A stretch of 29,500 bases of DNA from a bacterium. Its GTDB lineage: Bacteria; Patescibacteriota; Patescibacteriia; JAZDEU01. Of this stretch, positions 1 through 29,500 are shown piece by piece. The position numbers and the translations under genes are program-made. Numbering within the stretch: the stretch's first letter is position 1; each line of letters begins with the position of its first letter. The notes below the pieces were generated by a model. It searched no databases. It was given only the letters and a program-made list of their open reading frames with translations, and had not been told where the DNA came from. The stretch spans positions 1 through 29,500 of the forward strand of contig JAZDNE010000080.1 of assembly GCA_043800235.1 (NCBI GenBank). The letters run 5' to 3'.

Positions 1-138
1 TCCTAAATTCCCATATTTCGGTCAAATTTTCCAAAAAATTCTTTGGCTTAGCTTAGGCTAAACCGCAAAATTTGTTTGAAAAATTATGCCTCGAAATCTG
101 GAAATTTATGACTAAAGGAGCATTCGGCGACAGTCCCA
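1..138 (-). mobile_element. Foldback MITE-like element, family A, copy 1 (cut by window start)
   Basis: Reverse complement is near-identical to 29356-29500; ends in GCATTCGGCGACAGTCCCA followed by TAA (139-141). Confidence 0.85.
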
Positions 139-143
139 TAAAG

Positions 144-713
144 ATGAAGTTTGAACAGGCGGAAAAATTATCTGATGAAGAGCTTGTAAAATTAACCTTG
201 TCAAATCAGGATTATTTTTTATTTATTATACATAGATATAAAATTAGGCTCTTTAATTATATTCGAAGAGTAACTAATATAAGTTATGAAGACGCGGAAG
301 ATATTTTACAAGATGTTTTTATAAAAATATACTTTAATCTTAATGATTTCGCGCCTGATTTAAAATTTTCATCATGGGTTTACGCCATTGCCAGAAATCA
401 AGCAATAAGCAATTATAGGAAGTTGCGATCAAGAGCGGAAGGACATAAAACGGATTTTAATGATGATATAGTTAATGATTTGGTTTTTGAAATAGATATC
501 AATAAAAATATAGACGCAAAATTTTTAAAAGAGAATGTTCAAAAGATTTTGAGCAGTATGAATGGAAAATATAGAGAAGTGTTAGTTTTGAAATTTTTAG
601 AAGATAAGAGTTATCAAGAAATATCAGATATTATAAAAAAGCCATCAGGAACAGTAGGATCTATGATAAATAAAGCAAAGAAAATATTTAGGGATAAATT
701 AAATAATATATGA
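144..713 (+). CDS. ECF-type RNA polymerase sigma-70 factor
   Basis: Region 2 (DAEDILQDVFIK, KFSSWVYAIARN) and region 4 (YQEISDIIKKPSGTVGSMINKAK). ATG 144 preferred because 72-138 lies in the repeat. Confidence 0.9.
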   Translation: MKFEQAEKLSDEELVKLTLSNQDYFLFIIHRYKIRLFNYIRRVTNISYEDAEDILQDVFIKIYFNLNDFAPDLKFSSWVYAIARNQAISNYRKLRSRAEGHKTDFNDDIVNDLVFEIDINKNIDAKFLKENVQKILSSMNGKYREVLVLKFLEDKSYQEISDIIKKPSGTVGSMINKAKKIFRDKLNNI

Positions 714-1489
714 TTCAAAATAATGATTTTGATAAAAAATTATTAGATGCTATAAAAGATAAAAAAATATTCCCTAAGCCGAAATGGAAATTTTTATTTA
801 AAAAATTTATTATTTGGATAGCTGGCATATTATCGTTATTATTGGGCGCTATTGCTGTGTCTCTAATTATTTATATAAGTAAATTTGATGATAGAGGCGT
901 ATTTAGAAGGATAGGCAAAGGAATCCCAGAAGTTATTTTATTAAGCGTCCCTTTTTTTTGGATTTTATGTTTGGCTTTGTTTATTTTTTTAGTTTATCTT
1001 AATTTTAAAAAAACAAAAACAGGGTATCGTTATTCGATATTGGCGATTATCGCGAGCGCTATTTTTTTGAGTGTTTTATTAGGCGCTGTATTTTATCGCG
1101 CTGGGTTGAGTATGAAAATTGATGATATATTGGGAAGAAAAGCTCCATTTTATGATAGAATAATAAATCCGCATATACAGTTTTGGTCAAAACCTGAAGA
1201 GGGAAGATTGTCTGGTTTAATATTATCAAAAGGAGATAATTTTTTAACAGTAGTAGATAAATTAAAGCAAGAGTGGAATGTAAGTTTTAAAAATTTTCAA
1301 AATTTTGATAATATCAAAGCGGGAGTCCCAGCGCGGTTTATAGGAAAAAAATTATCTGTTAATGAATTTGAAGCATTTGAAATTTTGCCGATGAGATCCG
1401 GACGAGGATTTTATGATCGTTTTAGACCTAAATTCCTTTCTCCCGATCGCCATGATAAATTTAGACCGTATAAATTTATCGGTAAATAA
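710..1489 (+). CDS. Membrane protein with about 3 TM helices, probable anti-sigma partner
   Basis: Overlaps the sigma stop codon; three hydrophobic segments plus a soluble C-terminal domain. Function inferred from position only. Confidence 0.55.
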   Translation: MIQNNDFDKKLLDAIKDKKIFPKPKWKFLFKKFIIWIAGILSLLLGAIAVSLIIYISKFDDRGVFRRIGKGIPEVILLSVPFFWILCLALFIFLVYLNFKKTKTGYRYSILAIIASAIFLSVLLGAVFYRAGLSMKIDDILGRKAPFYDRIINPHIQFWSKPEEGRLSGLILSKGDNFLTVVDKLKQEWNVSFKNFQNFDNIKAGVPARFIGKKLSVNEFEAFEILPMRSGRGFYDRFRPKFLSPDRHDKFRPYKFIGK

Positions 1490-1496
1490 ATAATTT

Positions 1497-3578
1497 ATGG
1501 ATACTAAAGAAATTACAAAGAAAACTAAAAAAATTAGATTTTTTAAGACTAAAAAGTTTTTGCTGTTTGCTATAATAATTGTTTTTTCCGCAAGCTATTA
1601 TTTTTATAAATCTAAAAATACGCAAGTTGAGACGATTCAGTATGTTTTAGGCAAAGTTGAAAGAGGATCTATTTTAACTTCTGTTTCTGGATCTGGGCAG
1701 GTTGTGGTTTCTAATCAAGTAGATATTAAATCTAAAGTTTCGGGAGAGATAATTTATAGCAATATTAAAAATGGACAAGAAGTTAAAAGCGACGAGATAC
1801 TTTTTAAAATTGATGATCGCGACGCGCAGGGGGCGGTAAAAGACGCGAGCGCAGACCTTCAAACATCCAAACTTGAATTCGAGGAATTATTGAAGCCCGC
1901 GAGTGAAAGTGAAATTTTGCAGGCGGAAAATTCAATTAACTCCGCTAAAAGAAATTTGGAAAAATTATTAAATCCTCCTGACGCATTAGAACTTATGAAA
2001 GCGGAAAATGCTTTAAGCCAAGCGAAAGATAATTTTGAAAAATTAAAAGCGAGTCAAAAAAATACTTATCAGGAAATTTTAGATCAAATTAAAGAAGCCG
2101 AGTCTGATCTTGAGAAATCTTATGAGGATTCTTTTAATACGATAGCAAATAGTTTTTTAGATCTGCCAGAAATGATTACTAATTTGCGAGATATTCTTTA
2201 TAGCGAAGAAATCGCCGATAGTGAAATTACTATGGGGAATACTTGGAATATATCCGCTTTGAAAAACTCCATTTCTTCTTATGATTTTATGCAAGAATTA
2301 CAAAAATATATTGATAATTCGGAGTTAGTTTATAAAAACGCGAGAGAGAAATATGATGTTAATTATGATAATTATAAAAAATCAAGCCGCTATTCCAATA
2401 AAGATGTTATTGAAACATTATTGTCAGAAACATTAGAAACGACTAAGACATTTTCAGAAACAATTAAAAGCGAAGCCAATATGTTTGATTATTGGGTAGA
2501 TTGCCGTTCGCAAATGGGGCAGGAAATATTTAGCATGATAACCGAATATCAAGCTGAATTAAAAACTTACACATCAAAAATCAATGGACATATAACAAAT
2601 ATTTTATCCGCAAAAAGCGCTATTGAAAATAGTAAAGAAGCTAAAGCGAATGCTGAAACTGATCGTATAGAAATGGAACAAAATAATCCTTTAGATTTGC
2701 TTGCGTCAGAGCAGTCTATTAAAGAAAAAGAGCAGACGCTCGCAGATTTAAAAGCTGGAGCGGAATATTCCGAGATCGAAGCGGCAAAGGAATCTTTAGC
2801 GGAAAAAGAGATGGCTTTAAAAGAATTAAAATTGGGTCCGGATGAGCTTGAAATAAGAGCGAAAAAAATTGCTGTTCAGCAAAAAGAAGAAACATTGCGA
2901 AAAGCGCGAGAAGTTTTGACTGATTATAGCATTAAAGCTCCTTTTGGCGGCGTGATAGCGGAAGTATTAGCCTTTAAGGGTGAGGCAGTCTCGTCTGGAA
3001 CAAGTTTTGCAACGATCATTACTCGGCAAAAAATAGCTGAAATTACATTTAATGAGATTGATATCGCGAAAGTCAAAATAGGGCAGAAAGCAGTTTTAAA
3101 TTTCACTGCCATAGATGGTTTATCAATTAGCGGAGAAGTGGCTGAACTTGATAATATTGGAACAATAACGCAGGGGGTAGTAAATTATACAGTAAAAATA
3201 GCTTTTGATACGCAGGATGAGAGAATAAAACCGCAAATGAGCGTATCGGCTACGATTACCACTAACCAAAAATTAGACACTCTGATCGCGCCGAATTCCG
3301 CTGTTAAAAATTCAAATGGGCAATATTATGTGGAGATGATTGCCCCTGAAGATGAAATTTTAAGCGAAAGCGGAGTTAGTTCAAAAAAACCTTTGGAACA
3401 TAAATTAGTTGAGATAGGATTATCTAATGATGATAACGCGGAAATTTTAAGCGGGCTTGAAGAAGGCGAAAAAATTATTATAAAAATTATAAATAATAGC
3501 GCTAATCAAACTCAATCAAGACAAACTGGCGGATTGCAGTTGTTTGGAGGAGGAGGCAATATTCGGATGATGAGATAA
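1497..3578 (+). CDS. Efflux periplasmic adaptor (HlyD/MacA-like) with very long coiled-coil
   Basis: N-terminal TM, lipoyl-like halves (VSGSGQV..IKSKVSGEI; IKAPFGGVI), beta-barrel end (GVVNYTVKI..IKPQMSVSA), long helical insert. Confidence 0.85.
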   Translation: MDTKEITKKTKKIRFFKTKKFLLFAIIIVFSASYYFYKSKNTQVETIQYVLGKVERGSILTSVSGSGQVVVSNQVDIKSKVSGEIIYSNIKNGQEVKSDEILFKIDDRDAQGAVKDASADLQTSKLEFEELLKPASESEILQAENSINSAKRNLEKLLNPPDALELMKAENALSQAKDNFEKLKASQKNTYQEILDQIKEAESDLEKSYEDSFNTIANSFLDLPEMITNLRDILYSEEIADSEITMGNTWNISALKNSISSYDFMQELQKYIDNSELVYKNAREKYDVNYDNYKKSSRYSNKDVIETLLSETLETTKTFSETIKSEANMFDYWVDCRSQMGQEIFSMITEYQAELKTYTSKINGHITNILSAKSAIENSKEAKANAETDRIEMEQNNPLDLLASEQSIKEKEQTLADLKAGAEYSEIEAAKESLAEKEMALKELKLGPDELEIRAKKIAVQQKEETLRKAREVLTDYSIKAPFGGVIAEVLAFKGEAVSSGTSFATIITRQKIAEITFNEIDIAKVKIGQKAVLNFTAIDGLSISGEVAELDNIGTITQGVVNYTVKIAFDTQDERIKPQMSVSATITTNQKLDTLIAPNSAVKNSNGQYYVEMIAPEDEILSESGVSSKKPLEHKLVEIGLSNDDNAEILSGLEEGEKIIIKIINNSANQTQSRQTGGLQLFGGGGNIRMMR

Positions 3579-3585
3579 ATTTAAT

Positions 3586-4257
3586 ATGATAGAATGTATA
3601 AATATAAATAAAATTTATGAAAATGGCGAGGTGGTTGTTCATATATTGAAAAATATATCTTTTAAAATTAAGAAAGGAGAATTTGTAGCCATAACTGGAC
3701 CTTCTGGTTCGGGCAAATCAACACTTATGCATATCATCGGAGCGCTTGATTCTCCTACTGACGGGAAGTATTTTTTGAATGGCGAAGATGTGTCTCTATT
3801 AAGCGATGAAGAATTAGCAAATATAAGAAAGAATAAAATTGGTTTCGTTTTTCAGTCATTTAATTTATTGCCAAGATCTACTGTTTTGCGCAATATAATG
3901 TTGCCATTAGTATATGCGGAAATTCCAGTTGCCGATAGGGAAGAAATGGCAAAAAAAGCCTTAATATCAGCGGGATTAGATGAGGATAGGTGGCATCATC
4001 TTACCAATCAGCTTTCAGGAGGACAGATGCAGAGAGTCGCGATAGCGCGCGCTTTAGTAAATAATCCTTCAATAATTTTAGCGGATGAGCCAACCGGCAA
4101 TTTAGATACTAAAACAGGGCAAATCGTGCTTAATACTTTTAAGAAATTAAATCAGAAAGAGGGGCATACAATTATTTTAATCACACATGAAAGCGAGGTC
4201 GCTAAATATGCCGATAGAGTTATAAATATCAAAGACGGTATTATAATCGCGCAGTAA
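3586..4257 (+). CDS. ABC transporter ATP-binding protein (MacB/LolD-like)
   Basis: Walker [10 protein letters not shown], signature LSGGQMQR, Walker [13 protein letters not shown]-loop ITHE. Confidence 0.95.
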
Positions 4258-4271
4258 GTAAAGTTATTTTT

Positions 4272-5498
4272 ATGCTTTTATACGATTTATATCAGGAAAC
4301 ATTTTTAGCCGTTAAGGCAAATAAAGCAAGATCAGGACTAACAATTCTTGGGATTATTATTGGTATTGGGTCGGTAATAGCTATGGTTTCCATAGGTCAG
4401 GGAGCTCAAAAATCCATTGAATCAAGCATTGAATCGATTGGATCAAATTTAATTATGGTAATGCCTGGATTTCAAAGATCAGCCGTTGGCGGCGGTGTAA
4501 GCGCCGGACGCGGAAGCGCGCAAACTCTTAAAATTGAAGATGCGGACGCTATAAAAAATGAAATTTTACAAATTAAGGCGGTAGCGCCGGATTTATCTCG
4601 ACGGTATCAGATAACATTTAAGGGGAAAAATACAAATACTCAAGTAGTAGGGACATCGCCTTCTTACGCGGATGTTCGAAATTTAGAAATAGATCAAGGT
4701 TCTTTTATCTCTGAGCAAGACGCGCGAGCATTAAATAAAGTAGCAGTTCTTGCCCCTAATGCAAGAGATGATCTTTTTGGGGAAGGAGCTGAATCCATAG
4801 GGAACACAATACGGATAAATCAGGTTGATTTTAAAGTAATAGGAATTACAAAATCAAAAGGCGCGACAGGTTATGGGAATCAAGATGATATGGTTTTTGT
4901 TCCACTTTCTACAGCTCAACGATATTTATCAGGAGATAATTATTTATCAACAATAACTGTTCAGACTGAAAACCAATCCGCGTTGACTTCCGTTCAAAAT
5001 CAGATAAGAGATCTTTTATTGGCTCGCCATAAAATAAATGATCCGCAAATGGCAGATTTCCAAATTTTAAATCAGGCAGATATTATCGCCACAGCTTCTT
5101 CTGTAACAGGAACATTTACTATGCTTTTGGCGGCTATTGCCGGGATTTCTTTAATTGTTGGCGGAATCGGCATTATGAATATGATGCTCACAAATGTCAC
5201 AGAACGCACAAAGGAGATCGGTCTGCGCAAAGCTATTGGAGCTCAAAAGAACGATATAAGCAATCAATTTTTAGCGGAAGCGGTAATGCTTACTTTGATT
5301 GGAGGAATATTCGGTATTTTATTGGGATGGATTATTTCGCTTATTATATCAAAATTTGCGGGAATAGCGACTAATATTTCGATATATTCAATCATTTTAG
5401 CGTGTGGCGTATCTGCCGCTATTGGAATTATATTTGGGTATTATCCTGCCAGAAGGGCGGCTAGGCTTAATCCGATTGAAGCGTTGAGATACGAATAA
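4272..5498 (+). CDS. ABC transporter permease (MacB/FtsX family)
   Basis: RSGLTILGIIIGIGSVI, VGGIGIMNMML..VTERTKEIGLRKAIGA, C-terminal PARRAARLNPIEALRYE. Confidence 0.95.
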   Translation: MLLYDLYQETFLAVKANKARSGLTILGIIIGIGSVIAMVSIGQGAQKSIESSIESIGSNLIMVMPGFQRSAVGGGVSAGRGSAQTLKIEDADAIKNEILQIKAVAPDLSRRYQITFKGKNTNTQVVGTSPSYADVRNLEIDQGSFISEQDARALNKVAVLAPNARDDLFGEGAESIGNTIRINQVDFKVIGITKSKGATGYGNQDDMVFVPLSTAQRYLSGDNYLSTITVQTENQSALTSVQNQIRDLLLARHKINDPQMADFQILNQADIIATASSVTGTFTMLLAAIAGISLIVGGIGIMNMMLTNVTERTKEIGLRKAIGAQKNDISNQFLAEAVMLTLIGGIFGILLGWIISLIISKFAGIATNISIYSIILACGVSAAIGIIFGYYPARRAARLNPIEALRYE

Positions 5499-5500
5499 TA

Positions 5501-5640
5501 TTAGATTTTTGCCATATGCCCGTCATCCTTAAACGAGTCAAAGCGAGTGAATAATCTCTTGATTAAGCGAAAAAAACTTTGGGATTATTTGTTCCTTTTT
5601 CTCTCAGAATTACGGATAACGGCATTCGGCGACAGTCTCT
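5501..5640 (-). mobile_element. Family B element, decayed copy
   Basis: GTGAATAATC..AAGCGAAAAAAACT.TGGGATT..CTCAGAAT.ACG..CATTCGGC aligns with the reverse complement of 22294-22436; right end GGCATTCGGCGACAGTCTCT then TTA. Left end is degenerate. Confidence 0.75.
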
Positions 5641-5651
5641 TTAAAAAATTT

Positions 5652-6074
5652 ATGACTAAAAAATTTATTTTGATCGCTATTGGCGCTGTTATTATTGTTG
5701 GCGCCGCATCTTTTTATGGAGGGATGACTTACGGGAAGTATAATAAAAGTTTTCAGGCTAATATGTCGCAGAGAACTAATAGTAATTTTCAACAATTTAG
5801 GCAGGGAATGGGCAATAGAGCTGGAGAAGGTTTAGTAAATGGGGAAATAATAAAAAAAGATGATGAAAGCATCACTGTGAAATTGCGGGATGGCGGATCG
5901 AAAATTATTTATATATCAAACAAAACAGGTATTATGAAATCAGTAGATGGCGTTAAAGATGATCTTGAAATTGGAGAAAATGCGATGGTTAATGGAAAAG
6001 TAAATTCTGACGGGAGTATTGCGGCTGAAACTATTCAGTTAAGAAAAAATATCAAATTACAAAATAGGGATTAA
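5652..6074 (+). CDS. Membrane-anchored protein with OB-fold/DUF5666-like domain
   Basis: N-terminal TM then GEIIKKDDESITVKL..DLEIGENAMVNG..DGSIAAETIQ. ATG 5652 preferred because the upstream extension is repeat-derived. Confidence 0.6.
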   Translation: MTKKFILIAIGAVIIVGAASFYGGMTYGKYNKSFQANMSQRTNSNFQQFRQGMGNRAGEGLVNGEIIKKDDESITVKLRDGGSKIIYISNKTGIMKSVDGVKDDLEIGENAMVNGKVNSDGSIAAETIQLRKNIKLQNRD

Positions 6075-6092
6075 AAAATTGGTTTATTTTTT

Positions 6093-6136
6093 AAAAAGGC
6101 GAATTTTTGTCTTCGCAGGCAGAAAATCGCTTTTTT
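6093..6136 (+). terminator. Probable intrinsic terminator of the exporter operon
   Basis: Imperfect stem AAAAAGGCGAATTTTTGTCT / AGGCAGAAAATCGCTTTTT ending in a T-run. Confidence 0.55.
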
Positions 6137-6145
6137 GCTTTTAGT

Positions 6146-6173
6146 TTGACAAAAATTGGCAAGGGGGTATAAT
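6146..6173 (+). promoter_or_regulatory. Sigma70-type promoter for iscU-nifU-mutS
   Basis: TTGACA (6146-6151), 16-bp spacer, TATAAT (6168-6173). Confidence 0.75.
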
Positions 6174-6213
6174 TTGATTAGATTTATATAAATTAATTTG
6201 TTAATAAAAATAT

Positions 6214-6663
6214 ATGTACTCAAAACAAGTTTTAAAACATTTTAAAAATCCGCATAATCAGGGGAAGATGGAAAATCCTACTGTTATCGGGGTTGCGGGA
6301 AATCCTGTTTGCGGGGATACGATGAAGATATATATAAAAGTTTCCGCCAAAGGCGGATCCGCCTCTGGCGGAAAGAGTGGTAAAATAAATAATTGCGATA
6401 AAAAATCCTCCTTAATCCCACTTTGCGAAAGGGGGAAATGTAAGATTGAGGATATAAAATTTGAGACATTGGGATGCGCGGCTGCGATAGCTTCTTCTTC
6501 AGTTTTGACGGATATGGCAAAAGGAAAAACTTTAGGCGAGGCATTAGAAATTACAAAAGGAGATGTAATAAAAAAATTAGGCGGTTTGCCGTCGCATAAA
6601 GAGCATTGTTCGCTTATAGCGGTTGATGCGTTGAGAAATGCCATAGATAAATTGAAAAAGTGA
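6214..6663 (+). CDS. iscU: IscU/NifU N-terminal-type Fe-S scaffold with repeat-derived insert
   Basis: MYSKQVLKHFKNPHN, NPVCGD, KFETLGCAAAIASSS, K.HCS: the three conserved Cys are present. Confidence 0.85.
   Translation: MYSKQVLKHFKNPHNQGKMENPTVIGVAGNPVCGDTMKIYIKVSAKGGSASGGKSGKINNCDKKSSLIPLCERGKCKIEDIKFETLGCAAAIASSSVLTDMAKGKTLGEALEITKGDVIKKLGGLPSHKEHCSLIAVDALRNAIDKLKK
6343..6372 (+). repeat. Double-hairpin palindrome in frame in iscU
   Basis: TCCGCC-AAA-GGCGGA-TCCGCC-TCT-GGCGGA, encoding SAKGGSASGG. Confidence 0.85.
6403..6436 (+). repeat. C-run/hairpin REP-like repeat in frame in iscU
   Basis: AAATCCTCCTTAA followed by stem TCCCACTTT-GCG-AAAGGGGGA. Confidence 0.6.
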
Positions 6664-6677
6664 AAAAAATAATTATT

Positions 6678-6908
6678 ATGAAGAATAAAATTTTAAAAAT
6701 ATTAAACAGTAAAATTAAACCGATGCTTCAAGCCGATGGCGGAGATTTGGAGTTAATTGAAGTCGATGAGAAAAATGGAATTGTAAAAGTTAGGATGACA
6801 GGCATGTGTTCTCATTGTCCTATGGCCGAGATGACTTTTCGGCATGGCATTGAAGAAGTTTTAAAAAAAGAAATTAAAGAAATTAAAAAAGTGGAATTGG
6901 CGAAATAG
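6678..6908 (+). CDS. NifU C-terminal (Nfu-type) Fe-S carrier domain protein
   Basis: IKPMLQADGGDLELI..VKVRMTGMCSHCPMA (CxxC). Start at 6660 or 6678 uncertain. Confidence 0.9.
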   Translation: MKNKILKILNSKIKPMLQADGGDLELIEVDEKNGIVKVRMTGMCSHCPMAEMTFRHGIEEVLKKEIKEIKKVELAK

Positions 6909-6909
6909 A

Positions 6910-6946
6910 GAATTATAAAATTAGAAATTAAAAAATTACAAATTAT
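6910..6946 (+). repeat. Degenerate 7-8 nt tandem repeat (AATTA core x5)
   Basis: GAATTAT AAAATTAG AAATTAA AAAATTAC AAATTAT, followed by a T-rich tract. Confidence 0.5.
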
Positions 6947-6979
6947 TTTTGTTTTGTTGTTTTTTGGTTTTTGACTTTT

Positions 6980-9589: not shown

Positions 9590-9625
9590 TGGGACTTTCG
9601 CCAGATGTACCCGCCCGTCACCATT
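9590..9625 (+). repeat. Solo left TIR of the family A/B type, starting right after the mutS stop
   Basis: TAA|TGGGACTTTCGCCAGATG..CCCGTCACC, resembling the start of family B. Confidence 0.6.
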
Positions 9626-9654
9626 AAAAGTTAAAAAATTTTTAATTATTAAAT

Positions 9655-11622: not shown

Positions 11623-11633
11623 TTTTGTAAATT

Positions 11634-11660
11634 AGAAAGGAGCATTCGGCTAAAGTCCCG
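11634..11660 (-). repeat. Solo right TIR of family A, just after the mutL stop
   Basis: Reverse complement CGGGACTTTAGCCGAATGCTCCTTT matches the family A end GGGACTGTCGCCGAATGCTCCTTT at 22 of 24 positions. Confidence 0.75.
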
Positions 11661-12620: not shown

Positions 12621-12786
12621 AGGGGCTGTCGCCGAATGCTCCTTTAGTCATAAATTTCCAGATTTACCAGGCATAATTTTTCAAACAAATTTTGCGGTTT
12701 AGCCTAAGCTAAAGGGAAAAAATTTTTTGGAAAATTTGACCGAAATATGGGGATTTAGGACAAAGAGGTATTCGGCGACAGCCCCT
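12621..12786 (+). mobile_element. Foldback MITE-like element, family A, copy 2 (complete, 166 bp)
   Basis: Perfect 17-bp TIR AGGGGCTGTCGCCGAAT; TAA at 12617-12619 (one extra C follows) and 12787-12789. Confidence 0.9.
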
Positions 12787-15702: not shown

Positions 15703-15740
15703 ACACTTGATACTTTATACTGAATAATTTATACTAATTA

Positions 15741-15906
15741 TGGGACTTATGCCGAATGCTCCTTTAGTCATAAATTGAAAGATTTACCAGGCATAATTTT
15801 TCAAACAAATTTTGCGGTTTAGCCTAAGCTAAGGGGTAAGAATTTTTTGGAAAATTTGACCGAAATATGGGAATTTAGGACAAAGAGGCATTCGGCATAA
15901 GTCCCA
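15741..15906 (+). mobile_element. Foldback MITE-like element, family A, copy 3 (complete, 166 bp)
   Basis: Perfect 19-bp TIR TGGGACTTATGCCGAATGC; TTA direct repeats at 15738-15740 and 15907-15909. Confidence 0.92.
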
Positions 15907-15929
15907 TTATATCATATTTTCACACATCT

Positions 15930-17027
15930 ATGCAACAAAGAACTTCAAATCTTATCGCCAGAGCTAAAATAATAGCAAATATCAGAAAATGGTTTGAAAA
16001 AAATCATTTTATTGAAGTTGAAACGCCTATCTTAGTTGACTGTCCTGATTTATCGCCAAATTTTGATATTCTAAAAACTAAAATCCATAATTCCCGCCTT
16101 AGCGCGTTTCCATCATCCATTTATCCTTTTACAAATCAATCGCATTCACAGAACTGTTTTTGTTTAGCGGGAAATGACGACAAAGGAAATACTAAATCTC
16201 TATCAAAATTATCCGCCGCATCTATAAAATATTTAATAACATCTCCCGAATTTTCAATGAAAAAATTATTAGCGCTTGAAAAATTAAACAACATTTATAC
16301 AATCACAAAAGTATTTCGCGATAATGAAGAAAACACGGGCATACATAGCATAGAATTTACTATGCTTGAATGGTATCGCAAAAATGCGGATTATACAGAT
16401 ATTATGCAAGATACAGAGGAATTAGTAACTCATCTTATTTGCTTCGCGCGCCCATTTCCCCGCCTAAAAATATCCAACCTCTTTAAAAAATACGCTTGCA
16501 TAGATAATGTCGAAAAATTATCTATTCCAGTATTCACAAAAATTATTCATTCGAGGGAATATAGCAAAGATAAAAATTTAACCTACGAACAATGCTTCAA
16601 TTTAATTTTTCTAAACGAAATAGAATCTAAACTTCCCAAAACCCCTTTTTTTCTTATAGACTACCCCGCCCCGCTCGCGGCGCTGGCAAAATTTAAAAAA
16701 AATAATCCGCATATAGCCGAAAGATTTGAATTATACATCAACGGCATAGAACTTTGCAACGGTTTTTCTGAACTTACTGACGGGAAAGAACAATTATCTC
16801 GTTTTAAAAAAGAAAATATCCTGCGCAAACGGATGGGCAAACCGCAACTTCCAATTGATTATGAATTATGTAAAAAATTAGATTCTATTTCTATAAAAAC
16901 AAAGGGACATCCTGTTCATGCGGCAAAGACCAAAAAAAACGCTATGGTAGGAGGCAACGCGATAGGCATAGATAGATTGGTTATGATTTTATTAAACGCG
17001 ACAGCGATTGATGAAGTTATGTATTAA
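15930..17027 (+). CDS. epmA: EF-P lysyl ligase EpmA (GenX/PoxA) with inserts
   Basis: FIEVETP, YLITSPEFSMKKLLA, VFRDNEE..H.IEFTMLEWYR, AERFELYINGIELCNGFSEL, AIGIDRL; lacks the LysRS anticodon domain. Confidence 0.88.
   Translation: MQQRTSNLIARAKIIANIRKWFEKNHFIEVETPILVDCPDLSPNFDILKTKIHNSRLSAFPSSIYPFTNQSHSQNCFCLAGNDDKGNTKSLSKLSAASIKYLITSPEFSMKKLLALEKLNNIYTITKVFRDNEENTGIHSIEFTMLEWYRKNADYTDIMQDTEELVTHLICFARPFPRLKISNLFKKYACIDNVEKLSIPVFTKIIHSREYSKDKNLTYEQCFNLIFLNEIESKLPKTPFFLIDYPAPLAALAKFKKNNPHIAERFELYINGIELCNGFSELTDGKEQLSRFKKENILRKRMGKPQLPIDYELCKKLDSISIKTKGHPVHAAKTKKNAMVGGNAIGIDRLVMILLNATAIDEVMY
16086..16180. repeat. Decayed CGTC-type inverted REP pair in frame in epmA
   Basis: CATAATTCCCGCCTTAGCG..CCAT on the left and TTAGCGGGAAATGACG on the right (reverse complement CGTCATTTCCCGC). 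Confidence 0.55.
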
Positions 17028-18153: not shown

Positions 18154-18159
18154 ATCAAC

Positions 18160-18243: not shown

Positions 18244-18272
18244 TTTAAAAACTTTTATCAATATGGTATAAT
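18244..18272 (+). promoter_or_regulatory. Extended -10 sigma70 promoter
   Basis: TTTAAA, 17-bp spacer, TATAAT preceded by TG at 18264-18265. Confidence 0.6.
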
Positions 18273-18304
18273 ATTATCAATAAAAAAATTTCTAATTTTT
18301 CGTT

Positions 18305-19444: not shown

Positions 19445-19455
19445 AAAATTCTGCT

Positions 19456-20076: not shown

Positions 20077-20106
20077 ACATCGCGCTATGAAAACGCGATA
20101 TGTCCA
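20074..20106. mobile_element. Family C mini-element (internally deleted)
   Basis: TA|TAGACATCGCGCTATGAAAACGCGATATGTCCA|TA; 20 of 22 nt identical to the left end of 29160-29338. Confidence 0.7.
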
Positions 20107-20134
20107 TATATCAAAAAAATAATTTAAAATTTCA

Positions 20135-22436
<2,302 letters not shown>

Positions 22437-22471
22437 TTATTATTTTAGCATATCTAAAACTATCTGTCATC

Positions 22472-22525
22472 TTGACAAAGTTTGCTTTTTAAACTATTGT
22501 CTTTTCCCCATCCATAGAGTATAAT
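22472..22525 (+). promoter_or_regulatory. Tandem sigma70-like promoters
   Basis: TTGACA(22472)-17-TATTGT and TTGTCT(22497)-17-TATAAT(22520). Confidence 0.55.
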
Positions 22526-22561
22526 AAGGCTAAACTTCTCATAATCCCTTTCCTGCTAAGT

Positions 22562-23464
22562 ATGATAGAATATAATTTTCCATTAAACCCAATCTCAAAC
22601 AAAGATCTTGAAAGAGGCTATTGGTTTGTCACCCATAAAATTTTCCTAAAAAGATTAGGCTATTCTTTTTTCATTCTATTTAATATACTCATAATATCCT
22701 TTAACGCATATAAAATAATAAACTTCTATACTGTAGAAGCGGAAAAACACGAACGCGAGATGCAAGAACTTTTTTCAATGCATATAGATTATGAACCGAT
22801 TCATAAATCTAATCAACCGTCTCCTCCTCAAATTGGTCAAATTAAAATTCTATCAAGCGGGAGAAAGAATGATAAAGGAACTTACGATCTAATCGCCCAA
22901 ATATACAACCCAAATGAAAAATTTAAAATAGAATTCGACTACCAATTTATTTGCAATAGCCAGAGTCTAATTTTAAAACACACATATGTATTGCCTGGGC
23001 AGAAAAAAATAATCGCGGATTTCGGACTGAATTTATTAAACCATAACAATAACGCCCAAGTAAAAATAATCAACCTGCAATATGAGCGGATATCCGCCCA
23101 TGAAATCGCTGATCCTATAAGCTTTATCAATGATCGGCTAATTTTTGAAATAAAAAATGTGGAGATGAATAAAATAGAAGAGGCAAAAAATGTCTATAAA
23201 ATCTCTTATGACTTTGAAAATAAAAGCGCGTATAATTACTGGGATTTAGGGCTTACTACTCTTTTATACAAAGATTCCGAAATCGTCGGCATTGATTATA
23301 TTGCTCTTGAAAAATTTCAATCAGGAGAAAAAAAAGAAATAGAACTTACTTGGTATGAATATTTGCCTACGACAATAAAAGTATCCATAATACCTGAAGC
23401 TGATGTATTTGATAAAAATATTTATATGAAATTTGAAGGTAAACAAAAAGGGCTTGCGCCATAA
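22562..23464 (+). CDS. Single-pass membrane protein of unknown function upstream of rodA
   Basis: 300-aa ORF, one N-terminal TM, beta-rich extracytoplasmic part. Confidence 0.65.
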   Translation: MIEYNFPLNPISNKDLERGYWFVTHKIFLKRLGYSFFILFNILIISFNAYKIINFYTVEAEKHEREMQELFSMHIDYEPIHKSNQPSPPQIGQIKILSSGRKNDKGTYDLIAQIYNPNEKFKIEFDYQFICNSQSLILKHTYVLPGQKKIIADFGLNLLNHNNNAQVKIINLQYERISAHEIADPISFINDRLIFEIKNVEMNKIEEAKNVYKISYDFENKSAYNYWDLGLTTLLYKDSEIVGIDYIALEKFQSGEKKEIELTWYEYLPTTIKVSIIPEADVFDKNIYMKFEGKQKGLAP

Positions 23465-23493
23465 AAATCTAAATAACATTTTAAAACACTCTA

Positions 23494-24624
23494 ATGTTTT
23501 TTAAAAAACTCCTCTCTTATTTAAAAAAATTCGACTGGATAACGCTCATAATCGTTATTTTTTTTATTGCCTTAGGACTAATGAGCATTTATGGAATTTC
23601 TTTAGGAAGCGGAGAAAAAAATCTTTTAAGCTTTAAAAAACAAATTATATTCGCAATAATTGGCGTAATACTTATCTTTGCGATAAGCGTTATTGATTAC
23701 AAAACGCTGAAAACATACGCAATTTGGATTTACGCGATGTCCGTAGCTCTTCTTGTTGTGGTGCTATCTCTTGGAAGAATTGTTCGCGGGACCAAAGGAT
23801 GGTTTGATTTCTATGGTTTAAGATTCCAGCCTGTTGAACTTGCAAAAATAGCTCTAGTCATAATACTCGCAAAATATTTCAGTTCAAAAATTTACGAAAT
23901 AAAAAAATTTTCCCAAATTATCGCGAGCGCGGCTATTACTTCTCTATGCATAATTCCAACTCTTTTCCAGCCTGATCTCGGCTCCGCCGCAATTCTCTTT
24001 TTTATTTGGCTGGGAATGCTCCTTTTATTTGGAATAAAAAAAAAATATTTTATTTTACTGATTATTATAATGGCGCTTTTCGTTGCGGCATCCTTTATTT
24101 TTTTAAAAGATTATCAAAAAGCGCGAATTTATACTTTTTTAGATCCATCCCGCGATCCATTAGGAAAAGGCTATAACATCACTCAATCTCTTATTGCTAT
24201 AGGCTCAGGACAGCTGAAAGGGAAAGGGTTAGGTTCAGGCACTCAAACACAATTAAAATTTTTGCCTGAAACAAAAACTGATTTTATTTTTTCAGTAATT
24301 GCCGAGGAAATGGGGTTTGGAATAATTATTCTAATTTTTATCGGCTGGATCGCTATTCTTTATAGATTCCTGCGATTAGCAAAAATCGCTAATAATCCTT
24401 TCGCCAGTTTTCTTTCGCTCGGCATCTCTATACTTCTTTTTGTCCATTTTTTCATAAATGTAGCCGTAAGCATAGGAATATTGCCTGTTACGGGAATCCC
24501 ATTGCCATTTATGAGTTATGGAGGGAGTTTTTTGATTATATGTTTTATATCCATAGGTATAATAGAAAGCATATACGCGCGAACAAAAATATCAACTCTC
24601 AATATTAAAACAAGCGACATATAA
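23494..24624 (+). CDS. rodA: SEDS peptidoglycan polymerase RodA
   Basis: QPVELAK, QPDLGS, YQKARI, GYNITQS.IAIGSG, PETKTDFIFSVIAEEMG, GIPLPFMSYGGS. Confidence 0.9.
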   Translation: MFFKKLLSYLKKFDWITLIIVIFFIALGLMSIYGISLGSGEKNLLSFKKQIIFAIIGVILIFAISVIDYKTLKTYAIWIYAMSVALLVVVLSLGRIVRGTKGWFDFYGLRFQPVELAKIALVIILAKYFSSKIYEIKKFSQIIASAAITSLCIIPTLFQPDLGSAAILFFIWLGMLLLFGIKKKYFILLIIIMALFVAASFIFLKDYQKARIYTFLDPSRDPLGKGYNITQSLIAIGSGQLKGKGLGSGTQTQLKFLPETKTDFIFSVIAEEMGFGIIILIFIGWIAILYRFLRLAKIANNPFASFLSLGISILLFVHFFINVAVSIGILPVTGIPLPFMSYGGSFLIICFISIGIIESIYARTKISTLNIKTSDI

Positions 24625-24635
24625 AATTATTACTG

Positions 24636-24666
24636 TTGACAAAAATTAAAATTAAACATATATGAT
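24636..24666 (+). promoter_or_regulatory. Possible sigma70 promoter
   Basis: TTGACA (24636-24641) and TATGAT (24661-24666); the 19-bp spacer is non-optimal. Confidence 0.4.
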
Positions 24667-24747
24667 AGGGGATAAATATTTAAGATTGCTTAGTTAAATA
24701 AATTCATCAACTAATTTATTTAATAACGGCATCTTAAAATCCCCTAT
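24665..24747. repeat. 83-bp foldback ending immediately before the ATG
   Basis: ATAGGGGAT/ATCCCCTAT, TTTAAGAT/ATCTTAAA and TTAAATAAATT/AATTTATTTAA arms; loop CATCAACT. Confidence 0.75.
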
Positions 24748-25644
24748 ATGACTAAAAAAATTTATAAAATTTTAGCGTCAATAATTCCTATTATTTTATT
24801 TTTTCCTCTAATGGCGGTGGCGCAAGATTCAGTAAAATCTATGGATGCATTGATTGACGATGTTGTTATAAAAAATACAGATTTAAGCGGAAAAATAAAT
24901 TTTTTACCTGTGATCAGAAATAAAAATGTAAATGTAAAAATCGGATTAGGCGCCTGTTGGAATAATACCCCTTACGAAATTTCTGTTTTTGATGAAATTA
25001 GAAACTTAACAACTATCATAAATGGGACCGCGCCTGCGGAAAGAGATTGCAATGATTGGTTTAATAGCTCAACTGCCGTCCCGGCGCAATACACTATCGC
25101 TCATACAAAAAATTTTGCTGGACAATCAGTAATCTTTACTTACTCAGGTTTAATTCCTTATGCCCAACAATTAGAGATGCGCTTCTATGAAGAAATTTTT
25201 AGAGACGCGAGTTCCTCAAAATTGAATAATAAATATAAAGGATATGTGATGATTAGAGCCGAAAACAAGGGACAACTTTATTATATAAGCCCTGTAAGCA
25301 AAAAAGCCTACCATATCGTCATACCAAATCATACAAGACAGTTAATACTCGGCGCAGGCGTAGGAATAACAAATGAAAATATCGCAAAAATCCAGGTTGG
25401 AAGCGCGTGCCCGGCAACAATTCCGAATTGCGATTTCCCGTCAAAATATGATCAAAATTTCGCGAATAAATATAAAGGATATATTTTTCTGCAAACAGAG
25501 GAAAAAGGAGAGGCTTGGTATGTTAATCCAAAAGACGGCAAACGATACTATTTAGGAGCGCCTGAAAATGGATATAATATTTTAGCTTCAACGGCGATTG
25601 GCATAAGCGAAAAAGATTTCGCGGAATTGGAATTAGCGTACTAA
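24748..25644 (+). CDS. Secreted/surface protein with duplicated G.[AL][WY]Y[VI].P...K.Y domain
   Basis: Signal peptide; repeats GYVMIRAENKGQLYYISPVSKKAY and GYIFLQTEEKGEAWYVNPKDGKRYY. Confidence 0.7.
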   Translation: MTKKIYKILASIIPIILFFPLMAVAQDSVKSMDALIDDVVIKNTDLSGKINFLPVIRNKNVNVKIGLGACWNNTPYEISVFDEIRNLTTIINGTAPAERDCNDWFNSSTAVPAQYTIAHTKNFAGQSVIFTYSGLIPYAQQLEMRFYEEIFRDASSSKLNNKYKGYVMIRAENKGQLYYISPVSKKAYHIVIPNHTRQLILGAGVGITNENIAKIQVGSACPATIPNCDFPSKYDQNFANKYKGYIFLQTEEKGEAWYVNPKDGKRYYLGAPENGYNILASTAIGISEKDFAELELAY

Positions 25645-25676
25645 CGCATTAACGCCTTACATTCTTGCTATATTTT

Positions 25677-25707
25677 AAGAGTCAGACTCCAAAAGAGCCT
25701 GACTCTT
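25677..25707. terminator. Hairpin between convergent genes, probable bidirectional terminator
   Basis: AAGAGTCAGACTC-CAAAA-GAGCCTGACTCTT (13-bp stem, 1 mismatch). Confidence 0.65.
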
Positions 25708-25712
25708 GTTAA

Positions 25713-26456
25713 TTAAAAACTTTGCTTCTCCCCCGCGCATACTAAATTCGCGCCATCGCGCCAACCGGTTTTTACGCCATTTTTTTCATAATAACATTCC
25801 CTTACTTTAAAATCAGCCTCGCTAAACATTTTTCTCAAACCCCATTTCGTAAAAGCGTGATGATATCGCACAACTCCTTTTCCGCTAAACGGCGGGAGCA
25901 TAATGTCGCCAAAATCCATTCTGCCATATTTTCGCGAAGTTTTGTTCTCTATTCCGCGCAATTTCACATAATTGCAAAGAATATATTTCCTGTATTTATC
26001 TTGCCATAAATTCCAATTAGTCATTATCAAAATTCCTCCAGGTTTTAAAACACGCCCCATCTCAATCATCGCTTTTTTCCGCAATGCTTTTGAAGGAATA
26101 TGGTGTAAAACAGCGATGCAAAAAATAATATCAAATTCATTTTCTCGAAATGGCAACTCTAAAACATCCCCAATTATAAAATTAGCTCTAATTTCTAATT
26201 TCTTTTTAGCTTCTTCTATCAATTTTTCGCTATTATCAATTCCAAAATAATTTAATTCTTTGTCGCTAAATAATTCTGAAAGCCTGCCATTGCCACAACC
26301 AACATCTAAAATCCTCATCCCATTTTTTGCGTATTTATCCGCTAAATTTTTTATTTCTTCCCAATTATAAAAACGGGTCTTTGAAAATTCCTCAGCGCAA
26401 ATATTGTAATTATCCTTTACTTGTTGTAAGATAGATTGAACTAAACTATATTTCAT
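25713..26456 (-). CDS. Class I SAM methyltransferase, Trm9/ALKBH8-like (putative tRNA cm5U34 methyltransferase)
   Basis: YN..AEEFSKTR..W, LDVGCGNG, IAVLHHI..R, GG...TNW and C-terminal RYHHAF motifs. Confidence 0.7.
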   Translation of the reverse strand: MKYSLVQSILQQVKDNYNICAEEFSKTRFYNWEEIKNLADKYAKNGMRILDVGCGNGRLSELFSDKELNYFGIDNSEKLIEEAKKKLEIRANFIIGDVLELPFRENEFDIIFCIAVLHHIPSKALRKKAMIEMGRVLKPGGILIMTNWNLWQDKYRKYILCNYVKLRGIENKTSRKYGRMDFGDIMLPPFSGKGVVRYHHAFTKWGLRKMFSEADFKVRECYYEKNGVKTGWRDGANLVCAGEKQSF

Positions 26457-26479
26457 ACAAAATATAAATTAAATTTTTT

Positions 26480-28180
26480 ATGATCCCCGCTCTCCTAAAA
26501 CTATCTCCAAAAACGCCACAGCAACTCTCGGAAGCAAAGCGAAAATTAGCGGCTAAATTCAAAATTCCTATTCCGACAAACTCTCTTCTTATTAAAGAAT
26601 ACCGCAAATATATAAAAAAAGCAAAAATAAACTCCGATAAAGAACTTTTAAAAATTCTTAAACGACGGGGCGTAAGAACAGGCTCAGGAGTCGCTCCTGT
26701 GGCTATACTTACAAAACCTTATCTATGTCCGGGTAAATGTTTTTATTGTCCAAATGAAAAAGGAATGCCTAAAAGCTACCTGTCGAACGAACCCGCTGTG
26801 ATGCGCGCGATTCTAAATTCTTTCGATCCATATAAACAAATACATGCAAGACTCGCCGCATTAGAGGCTAACGGGCACCCGACTGATAAAATAGAAATAA
26901 TAATTATGGGCGGCACATGGTCATATTTGCCAAAAAATTATCAAACTTATTATATTATCAACTGCTTTAAAGCATGCAATGAGTTTAATCGCTCCTTTTT
27001 TGATGAAAGAGCTATGGCGGGGTTATCCAATATCCAGCCTATCAATATTAGCCGACTGCGCAAAAAAAACAAACAACAACTTCTTAAAAAACTCCAATCC
27101 CAAAATGAAAAATCCGCCCATCGAATAGTAGGGCTCACATTAGAAACTCGTCCTGATTATATAAATATTGACGAAATAAAACGAATGCGAGAACTCGGAT
27201 GCACAAGAGTAGAACTTGGAGCGCAAGCTATCGATGATAAAATATTATCATTAAATAAACGAGGGCATGGCGTAAAAGAAATAATAAATGCCACAAAACT
27301 GCTTCGCGAAGCGGGATTTAAAATATGCTACCATATGATGGTAAATTTGCCTGGTTCGACTCTGAAAAAAGATTTTGAAATGTTTAAAAAATTATTCTCT
27401 ATTTCTGATTTTCAGCCAGACCAAATAAAAATTTATCCTTGTGTTGTCACAAAAAACGCTTCGCTATATAAATGGTATAAAAACGGAAAATATATCCCTT
27501 ACACTGAAAAACAGCTTGTCGAGCTCTTGATAAAAATAAAAACTATCATTCCAAAATGGGTTAGAGTGATAAGAGTGATAAGAGATATCCCCTCTTCCTC
27601 CATAGAAGCCGGCAATAAAATTTCAAATCTGCGGGAAAATCTTGGTAAAATTATGAATAAACGAAAAATTTCCTGCCAATGCATAAGATGCCGCGAGATA
27701 GGAAAATTAAAAATTCAAAGCGCGAGACTTAAAATTATAAAATACAAAGCCGCGGATGGGATAGAATACTTTTTATCTTACGAAGATTTTAAACAAAATA
27801 AAATAATCGCGTTTCTTCGCCTGCGCCTGCCTTATAGTTCCCTCCCATTGGATGAGAACGCTAAAGCAAAATTTTCTATAACACACTCAGCCGTAATACG
27901 CGAAGTCCATACTTATGGTCCCGCGGTAAAAATTTCAAAAAAAGAGAGTCAAGCCGCGCAACATATCGGATTTGGGAAAAAACTAATCAAAAAAGCGGAA
28001 GTAATCGCGCAAAAAAACGGATATAAAAAAATCGCCGTTATTTCCGGCGTAGGCGCGCGCGGCTATTATCGCAAACTGGGTTATCGGCTAAAAAATACTT
28101 ATATGATTAAAAAAAACCATCAGGTCATCCTAAATCCTGATGGCATAAAAAGTAAATATTTGTCAATAAACAATGTATAA
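26480..28180 (+). CDS. elp3: Elp3 radical SAM/acetyltransferase (tRNA U34 carboxymethyltransferase)
   Basis: CPGKCFYCP, PKSY, MGGT, LETRPD, VELGAQ, KIYP, CIRCREI, REVHTYG, QHIGFG, SGVGARGYYRKLGY. Confidence 0.93.
   Translation: MIPALLKLSPKTPQQLSEAKRKLAAKFKIPIPTNSLLIKEYRKYIKKAKINSDKELLKILKRRGVRTGSGVAPVAILTKPYLCPGKCFYCPNEKGMPKSYLSNEPAVMRAILNSFDPYKQIHARLAALEANGHPTDKIEIIIMGGTWSYLPKNYQTYYIINCFKACNEFNRSFFDERAMAGLSNIQPINISRLRKKNKQQLLKKLQSQNEKSAHRIVGLTLETRPDYINIDEIKRMRELGCTRVELGAQAIDDKILSLNKRGHGVKEIINATKLLREAGFKICYHMMVNLPGSTLKKDFEMFKKLFSISDFQPDQIKIYPCVVTKNASLYKWYKNGKYIPYTEKQLVELLIKIKTIIPKWVRVIRVIRDIPSSSIEAGNKISNLRENLGKIMNKRKISCQCIRCREIGKLKIQSARLKIIKYKAADGIEYFLSYEDFKQNKIIAFLRLRLPYSSLPLDENAKAKFSITHSAVIREVHTYGPAVKISKKESQAAQHIGFGKKLIKKAEVIAQKNGYKKIAVISGVGARGYYRKLGYRLKNTYMIKKNHQVILNPDGIKSKYLSINNV
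28117..28143. terminator. Hairpin at the elp3 3' end between convergent ORFs
   Basis: CCATCAGG-11 nt-CCTGATGG, preceded by an A-run. Confidence 0.45.
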
Positions 28181-28187
28181 CTATATG

Positions 28188-28595
28188 CTACCTGCCTGCG
28201 CAGACAGAATACAATCTATTTTTTACTTGACATATAATGTTAAATAAAAATATTAGCACGCAATAAATTTTAAAACCAAAACTTTTCTGATAAGGGAAAA
28301 CTATATTCTTTTTCATATTGATAAGATATAGCTCTCCATTCATTTCTACTTTACTAAAACGCCCCTTACTTTCAAGAAATTTTATATCCATTTTTTTTTC
28401 TGTTTCAATTACTTTAATTTCTTTATTCTTTATTATTCCAAACCAACTTTTACCAAACAATCCTACGGAAAAAATAATAATCCCTTCTTTCAAACGAATT
28501 GTTGTTATTTCATATTCCCTTATAGGAATAAGAAAATTTCCGCAAGCCTTTCTAATTGATTCCAAAATATCACTTTTCTTGTCTTTCTTAATCAT
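28188..28595 (-). CDS. Hypothetical protein
   Basis: ATG 28595 is preceded by SD-like GAGGAGGGGG; no recognisable motif; the C-terminus runs into a repeat. Confidence 0.45.
   Translation of the reverse strand: MIKKDKKSDILESIRKACGNFLIPIREYEITTIRLKEGIIIFSVGLFGKSWFGIIKNKEIKVIETEKKMDIKFLESKGRFSKVEMNGELYLINMKKNIVFPYQKSFGFKIYCVLIFLFNIICQVKNRLYSVCAGR
28191..28207. repeat. Decayed CCTGCCTGC..GCAGGCAGG-type palindrome
   Basis: CCTGCCTGCGCAGACAG. Confidence 0.5.
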
Positions 28596-28686
28596 ATCCC
28601 CCTCCTCATTATAAAAAAAGAACAAAATACCACTACTCAATACTCTATTTTTATTGTATCTATTATTTTTAAACAAGTCAACATAA

Positions 28687-28821
28687 AGTGGACAAATTGT
28701 GGATAACCTTTAAAACTTATCTATATCCCCTATAATTTTTTATCCACAGCCAAATATTGTCCGATAAACATCAATAAAATTCCGTTAAAATAAGCCTAAA
28801 ATTAAAAGATAATTATCCACA
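28687..28821. promoter_or_regulatory. DnaA-box cluster (candidate oriC or DnaA-binding locus)
   Basis: Perfect boxes TGTGGATAA 28698-28706, TTATCCACA 28740-28748 and 28813-28821; two 2-mismatch boxes at 28687 and 28717; AT-rich tract follows. Confidence 0.7.
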
Positions 28822-29083
28822 TACGAATAATTGACCATAATCAAAAAAAATGATATACTACTAACATAATCAATGTTCTTTCTGAAAAAAAATTCTTGAC
28901 TATTTTTAAAAAATTTAGAAAAATAAACATAAGAAAGGTATAAAAAATAAATTTATTAAAACTAAATTTATAAAATACCAAAAAATAGTTAAGAAAAAAA
29001 GTCCTAAAAAAACTTGAAAACAAACTCTTCATAAGTCTATATAAAAATATATTAGGCTTATGAGGTGAGTTCAAGTTTACAAT

Positions 29084-29150
29084 GGACGCCGAACACGGCC
29101 TATAAAATTTATATTATTTATATAATAAAAGAGGCGCCAGTACGGCGTCC
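29084..29150. repeat. Inverted REP-like doublet with AT-rich spacer
   Basis: GGACGCCGAACACGGCC .. GAGGCGCCAGTACGGCGTCC; GGACGCCG/CGGCGTCC pair perfectly. Confidence 0.7.
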
Positions 29151-29159
29151 TTTTAATTA

Positions 29160-29338
29160 TGGACATCGCACTATGAAAGCGCGCTTAACAACTAAGAAAA
29201 ATTGATGAGTAACGAAGTTTTGCAAGTTTTAGGAAAACCGCAGATGTATCAGCAGATACGAAGAATATTTTCCTAAAATTAAAAACAAGCTAATCGCAAT
29301 TTTTATAGTTTATGGAGCGCGAAGTCATAGTGTGTCTA
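29160..29338. mobile_element. Family C 179-bp foldback element with TA flanks
   Basis: Nested stems CACTATGA/TCATAGTG, AAAAATTG/CAATTTTT, TTTTAGGAAAA/TTTTCCTAAAA, GTATC/GATAC; TA at 29158-29159 and 29339-29340. Confidence 0.7.
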
Positions 29339-29355
29339 TAGCCAATCATTTTTTA

Positions 29356-29500
29356 CGGGACTGTCGCCGAATGCTCCTTTAGTCATAAATTTCCAGATTT
29401 CGAGGCATAATTTTTCAAACAAATTTTGCGGTTTAGCCTAAGCTAAGCCAATAAATTTTTTGGAAAATTTGACCGAAATATGGGAATTTAGGACAAAGAG
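29356..29500 (+). mobile_element. Foldback MITE-like element, family A, copy 4 (cut by window end)
   Basis: TTA|CGGGACTGTCGCCGAATGCTCCTTTAG..; near-identical to copy 1. Confidence 0.88.

Follow-up and report, generated by a model that had tools for sequence, protein, structure and literature searches.

A short foldback repeat in a reduced Patescibacteria genome is probably a non-autonomous miniature transposable element with a 5-bp target duplication

The window analyzed here, which is the whole 29.5-kb contig C138 of the metagenome-assembled genome (MAG) G000, carries four copies of a short foldback repeat, termed family A, among genes of ordinary content (sigma factor, mutS, mutL, efp, hypD, gyrB and a pilin of type IV secretion system (T4SS) type). 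What kind of element is this repeat, and what moves it? The host is a bacterium of the Patescibacteria, or candidate phyla radiation (CPR), which usually is described as having streamlined genomes with little mobile DNA. The G000 assembly consists of 1,128,793 bp in 158 contigs with 34% GC and is 87% complete with 0.5% contamination; related genomes range from 0.7 to 1.3 Mb. Genome G001 represents a sister genus and other G numbers denote genomes of the same bacterial class. As set out below, it is highly probable that family A is a non-autonomous bacterial MITE, or miniature transposable element with inverted repeats, which generates a 5-bp duplication and is most likely served in trans by a DDE_Tnp_4 transposase of the IS5 superfamily.

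The four copies are located at 1-137 (minus strand), 12622-12785, 15742-15905 and 29357-29500 (all plus strand). Copy 2 is full length at 164 bp and copy 3 also spans 164 bp; copy 1 is cut by the contig start so that element positions ~1-140 are present, and copy 4 is cut by the contig end. A sequence-only reading made previously had assigned the copies to 1-138, 12621-12786, 15741-15906 and 29356-29500. These places were right to within one base, but the length of 166 bp was not: pairing of ends revealed 56 intact internal copies of 162-165 bp in G000. BLAST detected 150 non-overlapping places in G000 that are occupied by copies or fragments and that sum to 20,507 bp, or 1.8% of the assembly. 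The intact copies are bounded by perfect or near-perfect terminal inverted repeats (TIRs) of 18 bp, GGGRCTGTCGCCGAATGC; in copy 2, the left TIR GGGGCTGTCGCCGAATGC (12622-12639, plus strand) is partnered by the TIR at 12768-12785. Stops are present in all six frames and the element has no coding capacity. Of the 316 contig ends in the assembly, 70 lie inside a family A copy which, with the window being an entire contig, bears out the earlier suggestion that contigs break at this repeat.

Alignment of all copies placed the element bounds at GGG and CCC, and the next five bases outside these bounds are repeated. The target site duplication (TSD) is 5 bp with the consensus W-T-W-A-W, and TTA/TAA is merely its centre. 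A perfect duplication was found in 25 of 55 intact copies compared with 1.7 expected when right flanks were shuffled, and nine further copies showed a near match. Copy 3 is bordered by a perfect ATTAT pair (15737-15741 and 15906-15910), and the flanks of copy 2 are imperfect with TTAAC plus A on the left and TTAAT on the right. Thus, the 3-bp TTA/TAA duplication of PIF/Harbinger-Tourist type that had been proposed for the family is not sustained. At one locus elsewhere in the genome (C157:2805-2967), the copy has on either side the identical 10-bp direct repeat ACTATATAAG in place of a 5-bp one.

Empty sites were sought by joining the flanks of each copy, with one 5-mer removed, and searching the joined sequence against G000. 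Three joined sites matched other repeats in the genome. The copy at C113:3111-3274 splits a different repeat family and the filled site reads TACAA, element, TACAA; seven uninterrupted paralogues of the interrupted repeat read CATCTTACAAGCTATTTT with a single TACAA. The same filled and empty pattern was observed with TATTC at C60:3917-4078, which is inside the end of another element, and at a third site at C83:1739-1900. These three within-genome comparisons are exact empty sites, in which the uninterrupted paralogues hold one copy of the 5-mer, and show that family A was inserted, as the sequence-only reading had anticipated. Copies of a second repeat family of ~155 bp served as family A empty sites: this repeat begins TTAGACTGTAGAATAATAGC and finishes TTCTACACCC, and is represented by C16:2910-3068 and at least nine paralogues (on C61, C50, C41, C40, C60, C156, C149, C82 and C113).

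Comparisons between genomes point in the same direction. In G001 a family A copy is situated between two transporter genes for which the corresponding spacer in G000 is only 8 nt. One spacer possesses a copy in both genomes and was considered as a shared insertion, but the copies are on opposite sides of a conserved 114-nt block and represent independent insertions. In view of this presence, absence and independent insertion, family A is not a syntenic conserved RNA gene. The nearest metagenome relative of efp (88% protein identity) resides on a contig that is syntenic on one side and contains neither the element nor hypD, so that this contig does not provide an exact empty site. An exact-protein look-up of EF-P for sister strains returned no record.

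The copies in G000 share 82-99% identity with a median of 93%, their mean distance from the consensus is 5%, and no two are identical. With 45% of duplications perfect, the description of family A as recently active is only moderately true. Internal subtypes noted earlier were recovered, both as GATTT-CGAGG versus GATTTACCAGG and as a GGGG versus GCC loop. Every one of the four possible combinations of subtype modules is represented, and all four gametes were present in 134 of 153 pairs of informative sites, which indicates that family A copies are mosaics. Two further loci in G000, C136:139-386 and C54:11433-11676, consist of a full copy plus a second right half that begins in the central loop (CTAAGCTAAGG). 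The left flank of the C136 structure is common to a copy on C26. These one-and-a-half structures could reflect strain variation or assembly chimeras.

The distribution of the ends and of the interior suggests that family A is a modular element composed of a ~30-bp shell at each end and a conserved hairpin core of ~100 bp. In copy 2 the core (12652-12754, plus strand, ~103 bp) comprises an inner hairpin with A/T tracts and a central TTAGC-CTAA-GCTAA stem-loop. The shell TIR pattern occurs ten times in the window against 0.13 occurrences expected. Of 401 genomes of the class, 14 contain the exact 16-mer end GGGRCTGTCGCCGAAT, which is present 158 times in G000, with 0-1 occurrences of a reversed-pattern control. 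In G069 and G161 the same shell surrounds unrelated palindromic cargo of 115-223 bp with 5-bp duplications. Conversely, the central 103-bp core is present in 14 of the 401 genomes, which span eight families, and many of the core-bearing elements in other families carry other ends, AGACTTGTCGCG, with A-N-T flanks. The core is enclosed by the different ends (A)GACTTGTCGCGTAATTAG in G040, G004, G220, G167, G074 and G287, by GGGACT or GGGTCT end variants in G217, G238 and G383, and by the tip AGGTCT in G047. In genomes with the other shell the core is 79-87% identical to that of G000, which is approximately the same as in the sister genus (86%), whereas the terminal 30 bp is 93-97% identical to that in G001 and 23-45% identical to the other shell. 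Shells with other cargo, cores in other shells and a patchy occurrence among genomes together point to module exchange and horizontal spread. Phage and plasmid collections yielded no family A match. Twenty-two viral contigs that contain the 16-mer were discounted as chance matches in coding DNA that mostly is GC-rich and that is devoid of a partner end.

Shell-type ends also were observed in other arrangements. The same shell with other cargo was seen in G003 as well as in G069 and G161. In the window, shell-type ends at 22295-22310 and 5624-5639 belong to other, shorter elements with different cargo ('family B'), and two shell-type end motifs (GGGACTTTCGCC.., 1-2 mismatches) at 9591-9606 (plus strand) and 11644-11659 (minus strand) face each other across the whole of mutL.

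The consensus element forms one long imperfect hairpin, as first perceived from the sequence, and RNA folding assigned it a minimum free energy of -80 kcal/mol (z = -11 versus shuffles). The plus strand folds better than the minus strand in 52 of 53 copies owing to G-U pairs. The arms had been viewed as homogenized within each copy. Instead, they are ~75% complementary, the mismatches are the same from copy to copy, and the ends are mixed among copies. Similarly, concerted change of the two TIRs within a copy applies to the two window copies only, including copy 3 in which the TTATG/CATAA variant is found at both ends; genome-wide this variant is at both ends in just two of 11 carriers (Fisher p = 0.16), and G/A at position 4 is weakly associated with the partner position (p = 0.024). 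A different result was obtained between genomes. When 17 elements from 12 genomes were aligned, which was possible over the full length of all of them, 96.6% of cells were paired, and compensatory changes were seen in 29 of 56 pairs compared with 15.4 in shuffles (none of 500 reached 29) and 3-9 with slid partners. Twelve of the compensatory pairs are in the inner helices. These changes reveal that arm complementarity is maintained over long evolutionary distances. The source of the complementarity can be a single protein that reads both arms, a requirement for the hairpin, or conversion between the arms, and the data fit each.

As family A encodes nothing, a transposase would have to act on its ends in trans. 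The strongest lead emerged from G040, in which a 1045-bp insertion sequence (IS) on contig C65 (L020:1021-2066) contains a 300-aa open reading frame (ORF) that matches DDE_Tnp_4 (PF13359, E = 2e-29). The TIR of this IS, GACTTGTTGCGCAATAGC (GACTTGTTGCGCAATAGCAAA), is near-identical to the TIR GACTTGTCGCGTAATTAG of a MITE in the same genome that possesses a family A-like core. Homologous ISs of 1.0-1.07 kb are present in eight of 301 genomes of the class, and also in cyanobacteria, Chloroflexi and archaea. Their ends read (T)AGACYTGTTGC..AAATA with A-N-T on both sides, the middle base being identical in 27 of 37 complete copies; the sister MITEs follow this pattern in five of eight cases. A duplication of 3 bp, ANT, characterizes the IS5 family's ISL2 group. 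The family A ends align without gaps to the TIRs of these ISs, with six bases from the tip to GTCGC, both having GTCGC..AAT in common, and intermediate tips (AGACCT, AGACTT, AGGTCT, GGGTCT and GGGACT) exist in other genomes. The relationship to IS5 and PIF/Harbinger elements that had been surmised is therefore the best lead, although it was surmised from a 3-bp TTA/TAA duplication that does not hold. Family A differs from the ISs both in the tip and in a duplication of 5 bp as opposed to 3 bp (A-N-T). The uniformity of the IS ends (TAGACYTGTTGC), with A-N-T flanks, is striking in CPR bacteria, cyanobacteria, Anaerolineales and several archaeal MAGs (L022-L031, L088-L167), and suggests very wide horizontal spread of the 1.0-kb IS family.

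The search of the host itself for a transposase-bearing element with the same TIRs proved negative: no autonomous IS with family A ends, and neither a DDE_Tnp_4 nor a Tn3 transposase, was found in G000, which is an 87%-complete MAG, and tblastn with the G040 transposase retrieved nothing from this genome. Several candidates were examined and set aside. A 3.4-kb end pair on C25 turned out to be a chance match inside a gene on one side and another element's end on the other, separated by GroEL. The sole DDE_Tnp_1 IS of G000, an IS4-like one on C143, possesses unrelated 17-bp TIRs (CACTAGTGTCGCGTTAA) and a ~7-bp duplication, and is single-copy; rve-type genes on C3 and C87 are without family A ends, and none of the DDE_Tnp_1 genes of G069 and G003 is bracketed by these ends. 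The C143 element (C143:3996-5322, L015:1317-2643) is 1327 bp in length with perfect TIRs and specifies a 391-aa protein with DUF4372 and DDE_Tnp_1 domains. Its insertion point is close to the middle of a further palindromic element, the outer inverted repeats of which lie at L015:1141-1178 and 2669-2720, and a 71%-identical copy of the IS is present in G003. In addition, C135:12536-12772 (L215:1465-1701, minus strand) includes a truncated RAYT/IS200-like Y1 transposase ORF of 78 aa which corresponds to the C-terminal half only and adjoins a short tandem repeat.

The characteristics by which prokaryotic MITEs are recognized, namely a length below ~300 bp, no coding capacity, TIRs and a TSD with empty sites, all were observed for family A, and a cognate IS in the genome is the single one that was not. 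High copy number and non-syntenic positions further favor the MITE assignment made in the sequence-only reading. The duplications and exact empty sites show insertion by a staggered cut that duplicates 5 bp of AT-rich target. The enzyme most likely would be an IS5-superfamily DDE transposase (Pfam DDE_Tnp_4, ISL2-like), in that the family A ends align with the AGACYTGTYGC IS ends of the class and the G040 sister MITE nearly shares its ends with an IS. In view of the GGG tip and a duplication of 5 bp rather than 3 bp, this enzyme would be a distinct DDE_Tnp_4 variant with a 5-bp stagger. Shell and core modules may then be exchanged and spread horizontally. Within the host, copies survive only between genes or in last codons, and place long hairpins in untranslated regions (UTRs) and spacers; the repeat breaks short-read assemblies, and any benefit to the host would be putative.

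A number of observations weigh against this explanation. Approximately half of the copies are without a perfect duplication. The core is more conserved than the tips, and compensatory changes extend deep into the hairpin (the 12 inner-helix pairs); neither feature is predicted if the interior is junk between two TIRs. A DDE_Tnp_4 gene was not found in G000, G001-G004, G161, G266, G133, G217, G238, G383, G047 or G220, and neither a GGG tip nor a duplication of 5 bp was seen in any of the roughly 40 ISs of the DDE_Tnp_4 family that were examined. Moreover, the combination of GGGG tips and an AT-rich duplication of 5 bp is the textbook hallmark of Tn3-family ends and not of IS5.

The last point raises the question of whether the ends instead are recognized by a Tn3-family TnpA that makes 5-bp AT-rich duplications, such that family A would be equivalent to the elements reportedly designated TIMEs (Tn3-derived inverted-repeat miniature elements). 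The GGGG/GGGA tips and the duplication fit this origin. However, PF01526 (DDE_Tnp_Tn3) had no match in ten carrier genomes (of the element or of its ends), of which three are 98-100% complete, whereas control genomes were matched; the perfect inverted repeat is 18 bp and not ~38 bp; and the ends align without gaps to TIRs of IS5/ISL2 type, with intermediate tips known. A Tn3 derivation is, accordingly, distinctly unlikely. Mobilization by a RAYT (HUH Y1) transposase of a REPIN-like doublet is more doubtful still and can be assigned very little probability. The truncated Y1_Tnp/RAYT-like ORF on C135 is ~0.5 kb from a family A copy, and G003 has a strong Y1_Tnp gene beside shell-type ends, but the Y1 genes are not enclosed by ends and the ends do not have GTAG/CGTC heads. 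HUH Y1 transposases are not known to duplicate the target, as is established for IS200/IS605, and family A has variable 5-bp duplications with matching single-copy empty sites.

A proposal of another kind is that the core hairpin is the functional unit, either as a structured RNA (for instance a UTR element for RNase III or for stability) or as a protein-binding DNA scaffold, and that transposition merely spreads it. The greater conservation of the core than of the ends across at least eight families, the pairing and compensatory changes described above, the superior folding of the plus strand, and an enrichment of copies in divergent spacers (10 of 40 versus 9% of all spacers, p = 0.003) are in accord with this proposal. 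Nevertheless, it appears unlikely. Copies exhibit no significant orientation bias relative to co-directional neighboring genes (17 opposite versus eight same, p = 0.11) and their positions are not syntenic, the strand asymmetry has a single ancestral origin and hence counts once, and arm covariation is equally expected if one protein binds both arms. No Rfam family reached its gathering score, the only matches being to generic hairpins (miRNA precursors) far below threshold, and a promoter and terminator scan identified no such site within the element. A related formulation, in which the ~100-bp core would be a selected module (structured RNA, or DNA scaffold for a transposition complex or host protein) that moves between shells and CPR lineages by horizontal transfer, is a tentative possibility with the odds against it; it is based on a core that is 79-87% identical, and in which compensatory changes preserve the pairing, across at least 12 genomes of eight Patescibacteria families while shells are replaced. 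A MITE served in trans by a DDE_Tnp_4 transposase remains the preferred explanation.

The relationship of family A to neighboring genes was assessed with crude ORF calls. No copy is inside a gene and overlaps with genes do not exceed 31 nt in G000. Many copies lie no more than 30 nt from a start or stop, and in three cases the copy gives a gene a new stop codon, in agreement with the predicted insertion beside start and stop codons. Copy 1 ends 6 nt before the ATG (144) of the sigma-70-type factor gene. Copy 2 is positioned between the 3' end of hypD and the start of efp, and its right arm provides the end of the hypD reading frame (12755-12785, minus strand): the HypD C-terminus now reads ...GIK-GLSPNTSLS*, its nine final residues and the TAA stop being encoded by the element. 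Copy 3 occupies the spacer that parts two divergent genes, one T4SS-pilin-like and the other resembling a class II aminoacyl-tRNA synthetase (aaRS). A sigma-70-like promoter match, TTGATA-17-TATACT, is located at 15707-15735 immediately upstream of this copy; if it is used, the aaRS-like gene at 15930 would have copy 3 transcribed as its 5' leader.

Family A thus rewrites gene ends, as exemplified by HypD, and occupies promoter-bearing divergent spacers. A single MITE family makes up 1.8% of a reduced genome of 1.13 Mb, to which elements with the same ends add more, and accounts for about one-fifth of contig breaks, a matter of consequence for the assembly and binning of CPR genomes. The modularity of shell and core together with the patchy distribution across families provides a concrete marker of horizontal DNA flow among CPR bacteria. 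The results also define a search problem: the transposase that would recognize GGGACTGTCGCC ends and make 5-bp duplications. A search of the accessible literature did not find a paper that describes MITEs in Patescibacteria, with two incidental co-mentions only.

Among known systems, the ISL2-like DDE_Tnp_4 ISs of the IS5 family, which are bacterial relatives of PIF/Harbinger, resemble family A in that their AGACYTGTYGC..AAT ends align position for position with GGGACTGTCGCCGAAT. They share with it the same bacterial class and an AT-rich target with a T-N-A or A-N-T centre, and a sister MITE with the family A core has ends of the IS type; the outer three bases differ, however, and the duplication is 3 bp (A-N-T) in contrast to 5 bp in family A. 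TIMEs are similar to family A in their GGGG-type tips, in a duplication of 5 bp and in forming mosaics around a common end, but no Tn3 transposase was found in the ten carriers searched, and the family has a shorter TIR and ends that are homologous to IS5-type TIRs. The closest parallels in overall form are long-hairpin MITEs such as the Correia/NEMIS elements of Neisseria, RUP of S. pneumoniae, ERIC, Nezha of cyanobacteria and the Rickettsia palindromic elements which, like family A, are 100-200 bp in length with TIRs, a TSD and no ORF (see the review PMC10969869). They likewise form a stem-loop over their whole length, are found in tens to hundreds of intergenic copies, insert at gene ends, and are mobilized in trans. 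Family A is unlike these elements in its GGGRCTGTCGCCGAATGC ends and in a 5-bp W-T-W-A-W duplication instead of TA, and also in its host, a Patescibacteria bacterium of 1.1 Mb in which it forms 1.8% of the DNA, in a core that is common to different end types, and in having no cognate IS in the genome. Family A therefore is a new family of a well-known kind which stands out for how densely it populates a reduced genome and for the reassortment of shell and core.

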